DNA of 64,000 bases from the IMG/VR virus record IMGVR_UViG_3300049472_000168, positions 1 to 64,000 of that record; one strand, written 5' to 3'. Within the stretch, counting starts at the first letter, position 1; the number at the start of each line of letters is the position of its first letter. Position numbers and translations under genes: made by a program. Origin of the DNA: a virus. Lineage: Duplodnaviria > Caudoviricetes. Shown one piece after another: positions 13,950 through 36,883 of the stretch. Below the pieces are notes generated by a model. It saw nothing but the letters and a program-made list of their open reading frames with translations, searched no databases and was not told where the DNA came from.

Positions 13950-15569
13950 CTAGCTCCTGGAGAAGTCTGAGATGATCTGAGGTGTAGAGGTATCGAATCC
14001 ACAGATATCCATCATACCGGCATCGTCAGGATTCGCAATAGAGAATTTCGTTGCCGAAGTCGCGATTACTACCAATTTGGCTGGGATCCCAGTCTTTTGG
14101 CGATAATTCTCGATTTCCTTAGAGGCGTGGCGACCAGTATTGGTCTCGTTGTCGGTGTAGACGCAGAAGGTGTCTACGGCCACTTTATTTTTTGCTGCCC
14201 ACTGCATCGGTAGCGAGCAGTCTGTAGCACCGAAAGCGTTATTATGGCATTTTTCCATGGCATCGGACAGACTCATCCCAGGACGAATCTTAAGATCCCG
14301 GAAGGTGTCGGCAAAACCCATGATGTGGTGATTCTGTTCTACGGCTGCCGTAACCATAGACATTGCAGCGGTGGCTTCGTAAGGCCTAATCGGCATCCCT
14401 GCGATACTGTCGGAAGTCATAGACCCCGAAACATCCAGGGCCAGAAGAGTATTCTTCCCCGTCGGCTCCACAGCACCGAAGCTGAGGTAAAAAGCGTCAT
14501 CCAGTGCCTGGACCACACCTTGATCCGGAGTCCAGACCAGGCTTCCTTTAACCCCATGACCGCTGCTGTAGGTCTTCAAGGCAACCAAGACCTGAAGAGG
14601 ATGGACCCTGCCCTTCTTCAAGACCTCCAGGTCGGTGAGCTTGGCTTTGGCCATCTTCTGAGCCGCTGACATCGGCTTGATCAGTCCGATTTCAGTCATC
14701 TTGCCGAGATTTCGGATTAAAGCCGTAGGTCCCATAGCAGGAAGCATGGCAGCCCAGACCTCGGGGTAATTCCGCATCTCTGATGGGATACATTCATGAG
14801 GAAGCTGGTAGGTATCGATGAGCTTGACCAGTTCTTTGACATCCGACTTGGTCTTCATCTGCTTGGCTCGCTCGAAGGCCCAGATCATTTGTAGATCTGA
14901 ATTAGGATGAGGGACCTCGCCTACACTATCCCAACCCTTCATGACCCAGTGCATTACCTCTTTTTGGGAAGCATCCAACTCGTGGTGGACTCCGGGGTGG
15001 GCCAGACGCAGGGCAGTCTTGTGGTTTTCTCCGTTTCGGTTCTGGTACTTTGCCACCTGATAGGCGAATTGTTTCGCCGGGCGATCCATATACCAGCGTG
15101 TGATGGCTCGCATAAATCCGGAACCGAAGCCTCCGAGTTCACGGACTGCTGAGATGTACTGAAGGATATGGGTTCCAGTACGGCAAACCTTGGGGAGGAC
15201 AGAATACGCCATTGCTCGGGTCTCCGGAGACTTCGCCAGCTTAGACGCCATAGCCAATGCAAAAATTGCGGGATCGTTCTTTGGAGCCCGACCACCATCG
15301 CTGATTTCGACGATTGTTTTGATCGTACGCGCCGGGTCTGATTCCAGACACCGCAGGACACAGGCCGCATTCTCTTTGGTCAGCTTCTTTTCGCCAACGT
15401 AATAGGTGCCACCCTCAGAGCCTAGGACTAAGAATCGATTCAGTCGAGCCCAGTCATCAACTTGGAAGACGAAGCCTCCTGTATTGTTGAGGACCTGCTC
15501 TGTGGCAGCCTTGATCTTGACTGAGGTGTTCTTATTGGTTTTTGTCGTCACATGTTTGGCGTATTGCAT
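13950..15569 (-). CDS. rsr: Ro60 / TROVE-domain RNA-binding protein (TROVE + vWA)
   Basis: NNTGGFVF..RLNRFLVLGSEGGTYY, KYQNRNG..H..LRLAHP, ALIRNLGKMT, RVHPL, LLALDVSGSM, GATDCSLPM, YTDNET, GFD. Confidence 0.96.
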   Translation of the reverse strand: MQYAKHVTTKTNKNTSVKIKAATEQVLNNTGGFVFQVDDWARLNRFLVLGSEGGTYYVGEKKLTKENAACVLRCLESDPARTIKTIVEISDGGRAPKNDPAIFALAMASKLAKSPETRAMAYSVLPKVCRTGTHILQYISAVRELGGFGSGFMRAITRWYMDRPAKQFAYQVAKYQNRNGENHKTALRLAHPGVHHELDASQKEVMHWVMKGWDSVGEVPHPNSDLQMIWAFERAKQMKTKSDVKELVKLIDTYQLPHECIPSEMRNYPEVWAAMLPAMGPTALIRNLGKMTEIGLIKPMSAAQKMAKAKLTDLEVLKKGRVHPLQVLVALKTYSSGHGVKGSLVWTPDQGVVQALDDAFYLSFGAVEPTGKNTLLALDVSGSMTSDSIAGMPIRPYEATAAMSMVTAAVEQNHHIMGFADTFRDLKIRPGMSLSDAMEKCHNNAFGATDCSLPMQWAAKNKVAVDTFCVYTDNETNTGRHASKEIENYRQKTGIPAKLVVIATSATKFSIANPDDAGMMDICGFDTSTPQIISDFSRS

Positions 15570-15609
15570 TGTTTTCCTCTTCGTTTTGGGTTCCAGATCT
15601 GGAACGATG

Positions 15610-15737
15610 TGGAGAAGGATGGAATTGCACCACCGCTATCAGCTTGGATAAGATAATTATCTTCGCGGGGTCCGTGAAGGACAAAGATTTGAAGACAACG
15701 ATTTTGTGCCGACGTGCTACTACTACACAACTTCTCC
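15610..15737 (-). ncRNA. tRNA-shaped Y-RNA-like element A
   Basis: Acceptor GGAGAAG/CUUCUCC-A; D arm GUGU-AGUAGUA-GCAC; stem UCGGC/GCUGA enclosing a ~65-nt Y module; T arm GGUGG-UGCAAUU-CCAUC. Confidence 0.8.
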
Positions 15738-15746
15738 TAAAGTACC

Positions 15747-15813
15747 GCACCCCGCCCCGTATCGGAACCGATATTGGGAAACTACACACCCTTTAAAAGA
15801 TGTGCGGAGGTGC
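15747..15813 (-). ncRNA. Three-way-junction structured element within the ncRNA array
   Basis: GCACC../..GGUGC closing stem with hairpins GCACAUCUUU/AAAGGGUGUGU and UAUCGG/CCGAUA. Confidence 0.45.
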
Positions 15814-15815
15814 TA

Positions 15816-15875
15816 ACGAAATGCAAAGCCCGCCAGGGTTTGTAACCTGCTAAGGAGTCGAACCTTAGATTTCGC
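15816..15875 (-). ncRNA. Permuted (YrlA-like order) tRNA-mimic fragment
   Basis: GCGAAAU/AUUUCGU stem enclosing T arm CUAAGG-UUCGACU-CCUUAG, then a loop-closed acceptor-like hairpin CAGGUU-ACA-AACCCUG. Confidence 0.55.
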
Positions 15876-15877
15876 TG

Positions 15878-15996
15878 TCGCGACCGCTGGAATCGAACCA
15901 GCTCTACTATCTCCAAAAGATAACCGCCTTCAGTTGGGTCCTTGCGGACAAAAATCGAAGCCGGGTTTAAGTGTGCTACCGTTACACTACGTCGCG
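15878..15996 (-). ncRNA. tRNA-shaped Y-RNA-like element B
   Basis: Acceptor CGCGAC/GUCGCG-A; D arm GUGU-AACGGUA-GCAC; T arm GCUGG-UUCGAUU-CCAGC; Y module with GUCC-GCAA-GGAC at the anticodon position. Confidence 0.8.
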
Positions 15997-16000
15997 TAAA

Positions 16001-16057
16001 GAGGACAAAATCGATGCCGGTGTTTTCTAAGCATGATAAACCGACATCAGGGTCCTC
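16001..16057 (-). ncRNA. Minimal free-standing Y-RNA-like element D
   Basis: GAGGAC-CC-UGAUGUCGGU-UUAUC-loop-ACCGGCAUCG-AUUUU-GUCCUC; same module as A/B/C in non-permuted order. Confidence 0.75.
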
Positions 16058-16058
16058 C

Positions 16059-16191
16059 GGTGGAGATGGTTGGACTTGCACCAACGTCCTCGTCTTTACA
16101 ATGAGATAACTATCTTCGATTGGGTCCAAAAAGTTAAATGGACAAAAATTTGAAGACAGATTTTCGCGCTCTGCTACTGAGCTACATCCCC
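16059..16191 (-). ncRNA. tRNA-shaped Y-RNA-like element C (Ala-like acceptor)
   Basis: Acceptor GGGGAUG/CAUCUCC-A-CC; D arm GCUC-AGUAGCA-GAGC; T arm GUUGG-UGCAAGU-CCAAC; Y module insert. Confidence 0.8.
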
Positions 16192-16220
16192 GGATGGCAA
16201 GTATTTCCTGCCATTTGTCT

Positions 16221-16249
16221 AACCTAAACTATTTGATGGATTTTGTCAA
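16221..16249 (-). promoter_or_regulatory. sigma70-type promoter for the Y-RNA array and rsr
   Basis: TTGACA-17 nt-TAGGTT, ~30 nt upstream of element C. Confidence 0.7.
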
Positions 16250-16519
16250 GTCTTTTATTGTTTGGATGATATAACAGATGTCTTTTTCTTCTCCGACTTC
16301 TTTTTCTGAAGACCAAGAGAAATCGATACAATAATTGTCAGACCCCATGCAATCTCCTGCTGGAGAAAAGAATACCGGGATCTTGTCCCATTGTTCCTTT
16401 TCGACACATTTTTTCACATGGTCTAGAACAGAGATAAGATGCTCTTTGAGAGCTTTCTTTTGTTGAGCAGCTAAATTAGCTGGAGTAGTCTCCAATAATG
16501 TCTCAAGAGGATTTTTCAT
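16229..16519 (-). CDS. Hypothetical protein
   Basis: ORF downstream of recA. Confidence 0.55.
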   Translation of the reverse strand: MKNPLETLLETTPANLAAQQKKALKEHLISVLDHVKKCVEKEQWDKIPVFFSPAGDCMGSDNYCIDFSWSSEKEVGEEKDICYIIQTIKDLTKSIK

Positions 16520-34480: not shown

Positions 34481-36291
34481 TACGGCCTTTCGTCAGCAAA
34501 GTTGTGGCCAATAGTTTTATTGAACTCTGCTGATTCCTTGGCTTCAGTCTTGTCTACTTCATGATCTCTGGGTTGAGCCACGACACCCCCTAAAGTACCG
34601 AAGAGGGTAGCAATAGAAATTGCATTCTTCAGAGCTTCACGGACAGCAGGAAAGCTGTCGTAGACCTCAAGGGCTTTTCCAGGAGCAACATTCCCTGTCG
34701 ATAACTCGACGATGAAGGCTTCGTCATTCATCGTTGCCGACTTCGACAATAATTTGACTGTATTTTCGATGGTATCCTCAGCAAAACCACAATTTCTCAT
34801 CAACCTCCGAGTCGGCTCGATCAAAGCAGGAACCAAGATTTCAGACAAAATTGAGTCTTCTCCGGATTCCTCGATAAGAGTCGAGGCCTTCAGCAGAGCC
34901 CAACCTCCACCGACTAGGACACCGGACTTAATTGCACCCCGAACGGCACAGACAGCATCTTCGGCGCGATCTCGTCGTTCCTTGACTTCGCCATTGCTGG
35001 ACCCAATCACCTTGAGCTTAGCGATACCTCCGGTCAGCTTGGCAAGTCTCTCGTCAATAAGGGTTCGTTCCAGTTCGGATTCTGCCTGGTCCCTTTGGGC
35101 CCTGACGACATCGGCTCTATCAATCAGGATGCCATCATCATAGATCCCAACCACCGTAGTTCGATATCTGGAGACCTCAATAGCTCTGACTCCACCCGGA
35201 TGCCAGAAAGAATCATCGCCTTCTGAAATGTTTCCGATACCATTAAATGTGGCTTCGTCCAGCGGGTTTGTAATCGGGTCATAGACCTCGGCTCCTACGA
35301 TTCCTCCTAGATCGTCCAGGAAATTTCGCTGAGCATTATGGACTGGTGAATTGTTCGGTACTAGTAGAGGAAATACATTGATGGACCCCGGAGATACCCA
35401 GTTGTTCATCAAACCAGCCAATACGGATTCACTGAATCCAGTAGCGACTACGACGAGATTTGGAGTCTTCAAATACTGAGTATCATAGGCCTCCTGGAGG
35501 CGCTGGAGGACCGGGACTAGAGTCTCGATGTCATTAACTCTTCCGAAATACAGCAAAAATGCAGGTTTCTCGATATGGACCTGTTGGAGATCTTGTCGGT
35601 TAATAAATGCCGAATAGAACCTCTGACAACTTTCCTCATATCCCATAGCGATGGGGTAGCCTTCGATCTTTTCGACCTCGTAGGAAGATACTCCGGACCC
35701 TTCTACGATTGTGACGTTGCCATCATCGCCACAGATATCAAAACATTTCATCACAGCATCGGCTAGGTCAGAATCTCCGTTACCGGAAATCTTAGCCACA
35801 GAACGCAGCAGAGATCTTCCTTCGTCAGATTCCAAATCGGCAGGAATAGCAAAGGACTTCAGTGCAGGGTCTAAGACCTCCCTAAAGGCCTTGTCGATCT
35901 TTCTGACAACGGACTGAGGACTGATCCTGGAATTAGACTCAGAGAATTTATAGGTCAGTCGAATCAAGGCTTCCGCCAGAACCGTTGCGGTTGTGGTTCC
36001 GTCGCCAGCCTCCGTAGCTGTACGAACCGAAGCATCTCGGGTTCCCTCCAGGATGCATTGTGCGATTGCGTCCTGGAATCCAAGATTCCTAAAAACCGTG
36101 ACGCCGTCCTTCGTGATGATCGGAGGTAGGTCATACTCCTGACGTTCGATCAGAACCGGATGTCCTCCAGGACCCAGAGTACCACCCACGATATTTGAAA
36201 TCGTGGCCATGGTGTCCAGGATTTTTGATTTCAGAGCAGGACCGCGACCCAGGATAATTTTTGAGGCAGATTTTGCCTTTACGTATTGCAT
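34480..36291 (-). CDS. groEL: Phage chaperonin (GroEL-like)
   Basis: TLGPGG, ITKDGVTV, AGDGTTTATVLA, ERLAKLTGGIA, RAEDAVCAVRGA, GGG.AL. Confidence 0.95.
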   Translation of the reverse strand: MQYVKAKSASKIILGRGPALKSKILDTMATISNIVGGTLGPGGHPVLIERQEYDLPPIITKDGVTVFRNLGFQDAIAQCILEGTRDASVRTATEAGDGTTTATVLAEALIRLTYKFSESNSRISPQSVVRKIDKAFREVLDPALKSFAIPADLESDEGRSLLRSVAKISGNGDSDLADAVMKCFDICGDDGNVTIVEGSGVSSYEVEKIEGYPIAMGYEESCQRFYSAFINRQDLQQVHIEKPAFLLYFGRVNDIETLVPVLQRLQEAYDTQYLKTPNLVVVATGFSESVLAGLMNNWVSPGSINVFPLLVPNNSPVHNAQRNFLDDLGGIVGAEVYDPITNPLDEATFNGIGNISEGDDSFWHPGGVRAIEVSRYRTTVVGIYDDGILIDRADVVRAQRDQAESELERTLIDERLAKLTGGIAKLKVIGSSNGEVKERRDRAEDAVCAVRGAIKSGVLVGGGWALLKASTLIEESGEDSILSEILVPALIEPTRRLMRNCGFAEDTIENTVKLLSKSATMNDEAFIVELSTGNVAPGKALEVYDSFPAVREALKNAISIATLFGTLGGVVAQPRDHEVDKTEAKESAEFNKTIGHNFADERP

Positions 36292-36311
36292 CGTTTCAAA
36301 CGATACCTAGC

Positions 36312-36593
36312 TCAGGCCTTGGTGTCAAGACCTTTTTGGAGGAGTCTTTCTTTTTCTTCAAACTCGGCAAAGAACGATTTCTTTCGGATCACAGCCGTCT
36401 CCGCTTCCTCACCGAGGTCAGATACCGCTTTGACGAAAACCTGGTCTAGCTTGTCCAGGGGATCAATTATTAATTTGACCTTCTCAAATACCTCTTCCTT
36501 CGTCGAGGCCTGAACCTCGAAAGCAGGAAGCTGACGACTGGACATCCAGCCGTTTGTTGTCGAGTTAATCTGAGCCTGAATCGTCCAGTACAT
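36312..36593 (-). CDS. Hypothetical protein
   Basis: First gene of the minus-strand block; TTGACT-16-TAAGGT upstream. Confidence 0.55.
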   Translation of the reverse strand: MYWTIQAQINSTTNGWMSSRQLPAFEVQASTKEEVFEKVKLIIDPLDKLDQVFVKAVSDLGEEAETAVIRKKSFFAEFEEKERLLQKGLDTKA

Positions 36594-36699
36594 GACTTAA
36601 CCTTACCTGAATTAAAAATTAAGTCAAGAAGAACCTTGAGAGGAAAGGACTCCGGGTTCTCTTCTTTTCTTTCCGGATTCTTTTCTTCTATTAGAAGGT

Positions 36700-36883
36700 G
36701 GACATAATGTCCGCTTTTGAGGACATAATGTCCGCTTTTGAGGACATAATGTCCTACCCCATAGGACATCTTGTCCGCTTTTGAGGACATCTTGTCCGCT
36801 GTATATCTGTTCAGTAGAGGACAAGATGTCCGCTTTTGGAACATCGAGTCAAGGATTGAAGAGGACATAATGTCCGCTTTTGA
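36700..36883. repeat. Iteron-like array, putative replication origin or operator
   Basis: 7 copies of palindromic GGACA-NNN-TGTCC, most followed by GCTTTTGA, at 36700, 36721, 36742, 36764, 36785, 36819, 36863; located at the strand switch. Confidence 0.8.

Follow-up and report, generated by a model that had tools for sequence, protein, structure and literature searches.

The window analysed here, a stretch of 64,000 nucleotides from a virus of the Caudoviricetes (positions 1 to 64,000 of the 138-kb IMG/VR virus record IMGVR_UViG_3300049472_000168, with a completeness estimate of 84%), contains on its minus strand an intact rsr gene encoding an orthologue of Ro60. Upstream of rsr, the minus strand runs for about 640 nt without a convincing open reading frame (ORF), and this region holds three elements, here termed E1 to E3 from 5' to 3', in which a module resembling those of Y RNAs is inserted into a tRNA body. 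A fourth, smaller element presents the same type of module in the ordinary topology of Y RNAs. All of them precede rsr on its own strand, at distances of 41-622 nt. The scores given below refer to the Rfam tRNA model RF00005, which has a gathering score of 29 bits, and to R1, a covariance model of the family that is described further on.

13950-15569, minus strand: rsr, intact, encoding a Ro60 orthologue of 539 amino acids (Pfam vWA_Ro60, 8.6e-58; TROVE, 9.9e-35)
16061-16191, minus strand: E1, tRNA/Y chimera (RF00005, 40.7 bits with a 72-nt insert; secondary structure fold; R1, 92.7 bits)
15878-15996, minus strand: E2, tRNA/Y chimera (RF00005, 32.7 bits with a 61-nt insert; secondary structure fold; R1, 74.8 bits)
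15610-15737, minus strand: E3, tRNA/Y chimera (RF00005, 38 bits with a 64-nt insert; secondary structure fold; R1, 87.8 bits)
15997-16060, minus strand: mini Y RNA of 64 nt in ordinary topology (fold of -22.9 kcal/mol, z -4.16, 0 of 200 shuffles as stable)

An earlier note on this DNA, made from its letters, had read rsr as a Ro60 gene and had described three elements with tRNA arms and normal tRNA ends. The domain matches bear out the former, and the latter agrees with the RF00005 matches, which range from 32.7 to 40.7 bits and all exceed the gathering score. Each match spans model positions 1-71, with the acceptor, D arm, T arm and discriminator of the cloverleaf present in E1-E3 and the inserts falling exactly in the anticodon arm. 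No 7-nt anticodon loop with U33 is present in E1-E3; 61-72 nt take its place, and cutting out any segment of them restores none. ARAGORN called no tRNA in the window, E1-E3 included, and a prefiltered RF00005 scan of the phage's own genome listed 8 ordinary tRNAs and missed E1-E3, its filter being unsuited to chimeras. Outside the array, the phage genome holds these 8 ordinary tRNAs only. In all of them, as in E1-E3, CCA is not encoded and a C directly follows the discriminator, and no gene for a CCA enzyme was found in the phage record.

The three bodies differ in detail. That of E1 combines a 7-bp acceptor containing G3:U70 and a discriminator A73 with a D arm and with a T arm whose loop, UGCAAGU, is unusual; E2 presents a canonical D loop (with GG) and a canonical T loop (UUCGAUU), and E3 a 5-bp anticodon stem, UCGGC/GCUGA. 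An odd elbow is common to E1 and E3, with D loops (AGUAGCA and AGUAGUA, respectively) devoid of GG and T loops reading UGCAAGU and UGCAAUU, in which the D loop may pair with the T loop in an alternative way (C19-G55 in E1, U19-G55 in E3). Nearly all other chimeras of the family have canonical UUCGA T loops. The G3:U70 pair of E1, its discriminator A73 and its encoded CC were also noted, G3:U70/A73 being the alanine identity set of tRNA-Ala and tmRNA. This set is present in 12 of 125 chimeras (E1 and 11 others) and in 6 of 106 ordinary tRNAs from the same loci, too small a difference, and the idea of an alanine-set enrichment among chimeras was therefore dropped.

The segment that replaces the anticodon loop is common to the three elements. 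Read as RNA, it begins with the 5' strand of a helix P1, ending in GUCUUC, followed by an 8-nt A/U-rich strand ending in UUU, by the strand GUCC of a second helix, P2, and by a closing loop of 4 to ~12 nt in E1-E3; its 3' half comprises P2' (GGAC), CC plus 2-4 nt, P1' (starting with GAAG) and then UUAUC. The UUUG and CC that flank P2 are conserved, and the internal loop between the two helices is asymmetric. The core TTTGTCC-N(3-14)-GGACCC occurs three times in the 64-kb window, always within E1-E3, against a shuffle expectation of 0.04, and none of 100 shuffles reached three copies. Single-sequence folds of E1-E3 yield in 3/3 cases a CUUC/GAAG helix, an internal loop and a GUCC/GGAC helix, in agreement with the claim of the earlier note that a shared module replaces the anticodon loop. 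The order of motifs that it gave also stands, and its spacings require correction: CUUC and UUUGUCC are separated by 4-5 nt, not 3, and GGACCC and GAAG by 3-4 nt.

In E1, the module (16105-16159) comprises the P1 strands CUGUCUUC/GAAGAUAG, a P2 of GUCC(A)/(U)GGAC, a closing loop of 10-12 nt and then UUAUC. The E2 module (15919-15964) has P1 strands CCGGCUUC/GAAGGCGG and a GUCC/GGAC P2 capped by a GCAA tetraloop, and the UUAUC after it opens a 7-bp hairpin. The E3 module (15652-15698) presents P1 strands UUGUCUUC/GAAGAUAA, a GUCC/GGAC P2 with the loop UUCAC, and then UUAUC. An exact CTTC..TTTGTCC..GGACCC scan of viral contigs matched 105 loci and no chimeras, the matches being chance occurrences, mostly in coding DNA.

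The mini Y RNA extends exactly from the 3' end of E1 to the 5' end of E2. Its 5' strand reads GGAGGACCC-UGAUGUCGG-UUUAUC and its 3' strand CCGGCAUCG-AUUUU-GUCCUC, with a UUUA tail. It folds as a terminal-stem hairpin, and circular permutation of the E2 module, with a U-A/A-U flip within P1, yields its sequence. A topology-specific mini-Y pattern also picks up 15997-16060, and the Rfam families for Y RNAs and stem-bulge RNAs (sbRNAs) yielded no match at E<=10 on the window, this element included. The UUAUC motif given in the earlier note is confirmed, as is the coexistence of a copy in normal topology. A related arrangement was observed in another locus (L158, 4676-4725), where a permuted module (P1 strand, AUCCG-GCAA-CGGGU, CGAU, P1' strand, UUAUC) stands free, without a recognisable tRNA body.

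The distribution of these elements was analysed in 80 viral and 80 bacterial Ro60 loci gathered by protein homology. A search of viral contigs with the single Ro60 sequence of the window returned no match, and the loci were recovered with an alignment as query. In 14 further distinct viral loci, the unmodified RF00005 model identified 'tRNAs' of 118-156 nt beside Ro60, and all the chimeras found in this way carried YUUGYCC-loop-GGRYCG...GUUAYC in the anticodon arm. The covariance model R1 was built from 17 such sequences, with the structure set by hand, and its long matches numbered 60 viral and 96 bacterial. Because some of the weak long matches are probably classical YrlAs, the tRNA-like Y RNAs of bacteria, a strict rule for chimeras was adopted, requiring a length of 105-145 nt and at least 6/7 acceptor pairs in cis. 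Under this rule, there are 33 distinct viral chimeras in 24 of 81 sources and, among the best 150 matches, which were the ones aligned, at least 92 bacterial chimeras in at least 48 of the 80 bacterial Ro60 loci. Together these make about 125 distinct chimeras, with the bacterial share a lower bound.

In the viral Ro60 loci, all long R1 matches share the strand of Ro60; they lie 18-2000 nt from the gene, and arrays of two or three are frequent. About half of the relatives carry their chimeras directly upstream of rsr, and the other half downstream by up to 2 kb. The best-kept letters of the family consensus outside those of tRNA are CUUGCCC(G)...(C)GGGCCG and GGUUAUC. Chimeras are abundant next to Ro60 in Myxococcota, Chloroflexota, Armatimonadota and numerous phages. 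The operon had been put forward in the earlier note as a phage one; the record is indeed that of a phage, and the label proved too narrow, given that chimeras are at least as common by Ro60 in bacterial chromosomes and metagenome-assembled genomes.

The relatives provide evidence of covariation in both stems of the module, as had been proposed from the three window copies. The counts come from alignments fitted to the model structure, which favours that structure. In the viral alignment, 41 sequences have GC and 10 have AU at the first (outermost) P2 pair, with none unpaired, and double changes are observed at 8/8 P1 pairs; overall, pairs occupy 91% of cells, against 60% in shuffles and 38-45% with a slid partner. 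In the bacterial set, which lies outside the training of R1, P1 is paired in 88.7% and P2 in 98.7%. In an unfitted MAFFT alignment, the P1 pairing becomes visible once one-column register shifts are allowed, and RNAalifold predicted P2 de novo. Covariation, strong in both helices, extends over the roughly 125 relatives, in viral and bacterial alignments alike.

In YrlA, the 5' and 3' ends lie in the Ro stem and the acceptor is closed by a loop, so that there is no free CCA end (Wang et al. 2018, bioRxiv 10.1101/312249). The elements of the window follow instead the order acceptor-D-module-T-acceptor. Their acceptor strands pair in cis at 7/7, 6/7 and 7/7 positions in E1, E2 and E3, and with the neighbouring element, 64 and 140 nt away, at 4/7 and 3/7. 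This supports the claim that they represent the circular permutation opposite to YrlA. Among the 156 long R1 matches listed, 119 have 7/7 acceptor pairs in cis. A few weak R1 matches (in loci L158, L174, L125 and L139) are separated from their neighbours by gaps of 3-5 nt and pair better in trans than in cis, and are probably classical YrlAs. Since these few weak matches look like classical YrlA, both topologies exist around Ro60 genes.

Several features suggest that the module of the chimeras is a Ro60-binding site. In YrlA and YrlB, a GNCGAAN0-1G sequence near the 5' end overlaps the Rsr-binding sequences, and it has been likened to the metazoan GGUCCGA (Chen et al. 2014, PMC4201824). Many chimeras present an exact GNCGAAN0-1G directly after P2', as in GCCGAACG, GCCGAAGG and GUCGAACG, and also GGGCCGAACG, GGGCCGAAGG and GGUCGAACGG. 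UUAUC placed directly after the upper stem is, in turn, a conserved motif of vertebrate Y RNAs and nematode sbRNAs. In addition, the nematode sbRNA model RF01656 scored above gathering on normal-topology hairpins beside phage and bacterial Ro60 genes, which read GGGUCG/GGGCCGAAG ... GUUAYC ... CCUUAUCCGGG, and a crude mini-Y pattern returned, across the 160 Ro60 loci, 101 matches on the Ro60 strand and 5 on the other.

The linkage to Ro60 was also analysed without reference to TROVE, through a pattern scan of all viral contigs. The scan produced 83 matches, where a rough estimate places the chance matches expected for a collection of that size at ~100; R1 confirms chimeras on 11 contigs, and about 65 matches are unconfirmed. 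Nine of the 11 confirmed contigs have a TROVE gene on the same strand, no more than ~2 kb away. A phage of 211 kb, 98% complete (G001:C1), carries its chimera at 78085-78206, in a tRNA cluster, and its TROVE gene at 35648-36721, 41 kb off and on the opposite strand, and one contig, a 50%-complete provirus fragment with a weak match, has no TROVE gene. The earlier note had named module homologues unlinked to TROVE genes as evidence against its proposal; what emerges is nine linked contigs, one distant pair and one weak match without TROVE. The association between chimeras and Ro60 holds at the genome level, and operon adjacency is not absolute.

Further observations were made in these loci. The bacterial loci whose Ro60 genes are nearest to that of the phage (L186-L265) lie in dense same-strand arrays of ordinary tRNAs, with up to ~30 per 7.5 kb, in genomes of Myxococcota, Chloroflexota and Armatimonadota that include multi-Mb contigs. 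The cultured, temperate Gordonia phage Cashline (MW534378.1; L271, 2075-2362) has two tRNA-ended chimeras, scoring 56 and 23 bits, in a 645-nt stretch free of annotation that lies upstream of its Ro-like gene; they are located about 200-380 nt upstream of gene 37, and the phage grows on G. terrae 3612. Mycobacterium phage Alice (NC_028986.1; L272, 2040-2440) carries a classical YrlA and a YrlB-like mini Y RNA just upstream of its Ro gene, both lying under annotated small ORFs (gp218 and gp219) that are possibly mis-called. Beside another viral Ro60 gene (L146, 1481-1556 and 1676-1773), there are a CUA (amber-reading) tRNA and a 98-nt tRNA to which ARAGORN assigns the four-base anticodon taaa. 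Lastly, group I introns (89 bits) were detected downstream of Ro60 in two viral loci, and two viral loci as well as Gordonia phage BlueNGold have tmRNA genes no more than 2 kb from Ro60 (intron and tmRNA coordinates, listed jointly: L108 3625-3842; L116 6586-6803; L152/L153 1042-1467; L274 4438-4841).

In the window, rsr is surrounded by a phage replication set, encoding a DnaB-like helicase, a Toprim protein, a RecA-like ATPase and DnaE. The nearest relatives of its product share 67-68% identity with it, and a big cloud of phage and bacterial proteins follows at 50-55%. The remaining features of the leader are the following, the promoter and the leader hairpin being read from the sequence.

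16221-16249, minus strand: candidate sigma-70 promoter (TTGACA at 16249-16244, a 17-nt spacer, TAGGTT at 16226-16221)
16194-16214, minus strand: leader hairpin AUGGCA...UGCCAU, directly 5' of E1
15738-15877, minus strand: structured spacer of 140 nt (fold of -48 kcal/mol, z -2.74, 0 of 200 shuffles; Rfam matches at noise only)
15570-15609, minus strand: rsr 5' untranslated region (UTR), with a hairpin, GUUCCAGAUCUGGAAC, at 15590-15605 that has no U tract, followed by a Shine-Dalgarno sequence, GAGGA, at 15575-15579

The TTGACA-17-TAGGTT promoter proposed in the earlier note is present in the sequence and overlaps the end of an upstream ORF (16229-16519). Its -35 element is perfect; its -10 element agrees with TATAAT at 3/6 positions, and the promoter is not among the calls of a consensus scan, so that it is to be regarded as plausible, no more. 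On the minus strand between 15570 and 16250, no terminator-like site was found between the array and rsr. In the spacer, a GCGAAAU/AUUUCGU stem encloses a T-arm-like hairpin (UAAGG-UUCGACU-CCUUA) and a hairpin with GUUAC in its loop, and a second multi-helix domain comes after it.

From the anatomy of these sequences, their covariation and their family-wide linkage to Ro60, we infer transcription of the array as a single unit, its processing, binding by Ro60 and an effect on host RNA, and we consider it likely that this is a Ro60 operon with partner Y RNAs that are produced within tRNA bodies. A single transcript, with a start probably near 16215, would comprise the leader hairpin, E1, the mini Y RNA, E2, the 140-nt RNA, E3 and the rsr mRNA. 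Host RNase P and RNase Z would cut at the tRNA ends and the CCA-adding enzyme would finish them, giving rise to three different chimeras; the host enzymes are the likely processors, because the 3' context is tRNA-like and the record holds no CCA enzyme. The hairpin at 16194-16214 would be the 5' leader that RNase P removes, and the same cuts at the six tRNA ends ('tRNA punctuation') would free the mini Y RNA and the spacer RNA and give an rsr mRNA whose leader, capped by a hairpin, measures 40 nt. Each RNA would be bound by Ro60 through its module. The tRNA half could act as a stable scaffold, conferring exact ends and nuclease resistance, and as an effector-binding face, a role proposed for YrlA, and would in this way attach Ro60 to a host enzyme that binds tRNA or to a 3'-5' exonuclease such as PNPase. 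Cleavage by RNase P and CCA addition have been described for the YrlA of Mycobacterium smegmatis (Chen et al. 2014), and the Ro60 of Thermus phage phiLo binds in vitro two upstream Y-like RNAs and the host PNPase (NAR 2025, PMC12135203).

A number of observations weigh against this interpretation. The -10 hexamer TAGGTT is weak. The acceptor of E2 has a G:G mismatch at pair 7-66, and the non-canonical D and T loops of E1 and E3 might weaken both the elbow and recognition by tRNA enzymes. The window modules read GGACCC..GAAG opposite UUUGUCC, a variant of GNCGAA. The fitting of the alignments to the model structure bears on the covariation counts, and the R1 E-values are rough, with ordinary tRNAs and some classical YrlAs mixed among the low-scoring matches. 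Linkage within an operon is not universal, because one phage has its chimera 41 kb from Ro60 and on the other strand. Moreover, the Rfam model for YrlA (RF02553) reaches at best 15.2 bits (E=4.4) on the window, for a gathering score of 69. The same model stays below gathering on the genuine YrlA of phage Alice, and its silence was dropped as proof that no classical YrlA is present.

An unlikely alternative is that the chimeras are mainly free tRNA decoys, uncleavable for want of an anticodon loop and directed at the anticodon nucleases of the host, at defence proteins that modify or sense tRNA or at sensors of uncharged tRNA, with Ro60 as a stabiliser or irrelevant. The well-kept tRNA body, above gathering for RF00005, the phage with a chimera in a tRNA cluster 41 kb from Ro60 and the frequent embedding of Ro60 loci in tRNA arrays all agree with a decoy, a role already floated for YrlA by Hughes et al. 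(2020). Most anticodon nucleases, however, read the anticodon loop, which is absent here, and the best-conserved part of the family is the inserted module, which resembles a Ro-binding site. The same module also occurs without a tRNA body, as mini Y RNAs in the same loci, with the strand bias towards Ro60 reported above (101 against 5), and of the 11 contigs recovered blind to TROVE, 9 carry a TROVE gene on the same strand at no more than ~2 kb. The position of the window elements raises another possibility, which we regard as very unlikely, namely that the array is chiefly a cis-acting leader through which Ro60, bound to the unprocessed 5' UTR, autoregulates rsr translation or mRNA stability, the tRNA shapes being only processing or stability signals. 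All the elements of the window do lie in the rsr 5' UTR, no terminator precedes the gene, a hairpin sits just ahead of the Shine-Dalgarno sequence and about half of the relatives have their chimeras directly upstream. In the other half, however, they lie up to 2 kb downstream of rsr, and in one case the distance is 41 kb; complete 7-bp acceptors, with discriminators and conserved T loops, go beyond the needs of a leader, and three different copies per locus suggest products rather than one operator.

It is also conceivable, if highly improbable, that known objects have been misread, be they tRNA genes bearing introns or insertions, or classical YrlAs mis-framed across tandem units. RF00005 does match E1-E3, the weak matches in L158, L174, L125 and L139 pair better between neighbours, and mycobacteriophage Alice has a true classical YrlA made from the same parts. 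Against an intron or insertion stand the impossibility of restoring an anticodon loop or U33 by removing any segment, the conservation and covariation of the inserts and their length of 61-72 nt, far too short for a group I or II intron; no Rfam intron family matched 15500-16300 at E<=10. Mis-framing is countered by the window acceptors, which pair in cis at 7, 6 and 7 of 7 positions and in trans at 4 and 3 of 7, by the distances of 64 and 140 nt between elements, and by the capping of P2 with loops of 4 to ~12 nt, among them a GCAA tetraloop.

The interpretation of the array as a Ro60 operon with Y RNAs made inside tRNA bodies places the chimeras beside several known systems. Like YrlA, they are encoded beside rsr on the same strand, and they lead from a bulged helix, the putative Ro60-binding part, through the equivalent of an anticodon stem to a tRNA-like domain with D arm, T arm and acceptor. 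The chimera relatives share with YrlA GNCGAAN0-1G and a UUG on the opposite strand, and the YrlA of phage Alice is made of the same pieces as the chimeras, including GGUUACC (GGUUAYC) after the upper stem. They differ from YrlA in that the acceptor is open and carries a discriminator while the Ro stem is closed by a loop, the chain being opened elsewhere, and in that they form arrays of different copies. The YrlA of M. smegmatis comes nearer, as its 7-bp acceptor is recognised by RNase P and the CCA enzyme and it is to this extent a Y RNA with a tRNA-like open acceptor (Chen et al. 2014); its topology is that of YrlA and it ends as a nicked RNA in two pieces, whereas the chimeras are one continuous chain with tRNA ends from the start.

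With vertebrate Y RNAs, nematode sbRNAs and YrlB-type RNAs, the module appears to have in common the lower stem with a bulged C, the signature GG.C-C-G opposite UUG, the upper stem and UUAUC. The mini Y RNA at 15997-16060 follows the vertebrate Y/sbRNA layout, with no match to the corresponding Rfam families at E<=10, whereas the E1-E3 module is circularly permuted and grafted into a tRNA. Phage phiLo similarly has a phage Ro60 gene with several Y-like RNAs directly upstream, but the description of its Yrl1 and Yrl2 is that of stem-bulge-stem RNAs whose terminal stem is a 5'-3' one, with no mention of a tRNA body. The same architecture as that of the chimeras is found in a laboratory design, the tRNA scaffold that Ponchon and Dardel reportedly engineered in 2007, in which an RNA of interest stands in place of the anticodon loop and gains exact ends and stability from the tRNA enzymes; the chimeras would be its natural counterpart. 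The b7a-tRNA of Burroughs and Aravind (2016), compared here through the description that Wang et al. (2018) give of it, is said there to adjoin Rsr occasionally. As so described, it differs in its partners, a Band-7 protein and RtcB, and neither Band_7 (PF01145) nor RtcB (PF01139) was found in the 138-kb phage record.

No Y RNA that combines tRNA ends with a closed Ro stem is described in Chen et al. (2014), Wang et al. (2018), the 2015 Y RNA review, the 2025 phiLo study or a 2026 tRNA-mimic preprint, and full-text literature searches returned no description either; the b7a-tRNA, known through a citing account, is the main caveat on this novelty. Judging by their sequences, the chimeras would be a topological isomer of YrlA, previously undescribed in the literature searched. 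Chen et al. (2014, PMC4201824) reported few YrlAs in delta-proteobacteria and cyanobacteria and discarded candidates that overlapped tandem tRNA genes, a step that would have hidden this class.

The chimeras also have a plausible bearing on how YrlA arose. When a tandem array of them is read starting halfway through one module and stopping halfway through the next, the parts follow one another as in YrlA: Ro 5' strand, UUAUC, variable region, T arm, acceptor hairpin, D arm and Ro 3' strand. On this basis, it might be proposed that the tRNA-ended chimeras are the ancestral, still functional form of the bacterial tRNA-like Y RNAs, with a charged subset and homology to other Y RNAs, although we consider this fairly unlikely. 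If it were true, the chimeras would provide the missing intermediate for the 'dimeric tRNA' model of YrlA origin, and the GG.C-C-G/UUG/UUAUC signature would make prokaryotic, phage and animal Y RNAs homologous; Kowalski and Krude (2015) state that prokaryotic and animal Y RNAs are not. A subset of the chimeras might then be aminoacylated after CCA addition, and a charged chimera could, in the manner of tmRNA with SmpB, carry Ro60 to EF-Tu or to the ribosome.

Conservation of Ro60/Y RNA particles extends from bacteria to humans, and Ro60 is a major autoantigen in lupus and Sjogren syndrome. The partner RNAs of bacterial Ro60 have so far been known in one topology only, and a large part of the Y RNA world may be hidden as odd or unannotated 'tRNAs'. 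The UUAUC motif ties the phage and bacterial Y modules to animal Y RNAs, and the design of the chimeras, in which the engineered tRNA scaffold would have a natural equivalent, points to a route of biogenesis in which a polycistronic Y RNA array undergoes tRNA punctuation. Because the cultured Gordonia phage Cashline carries chimeras, this design is open to direct experiment.

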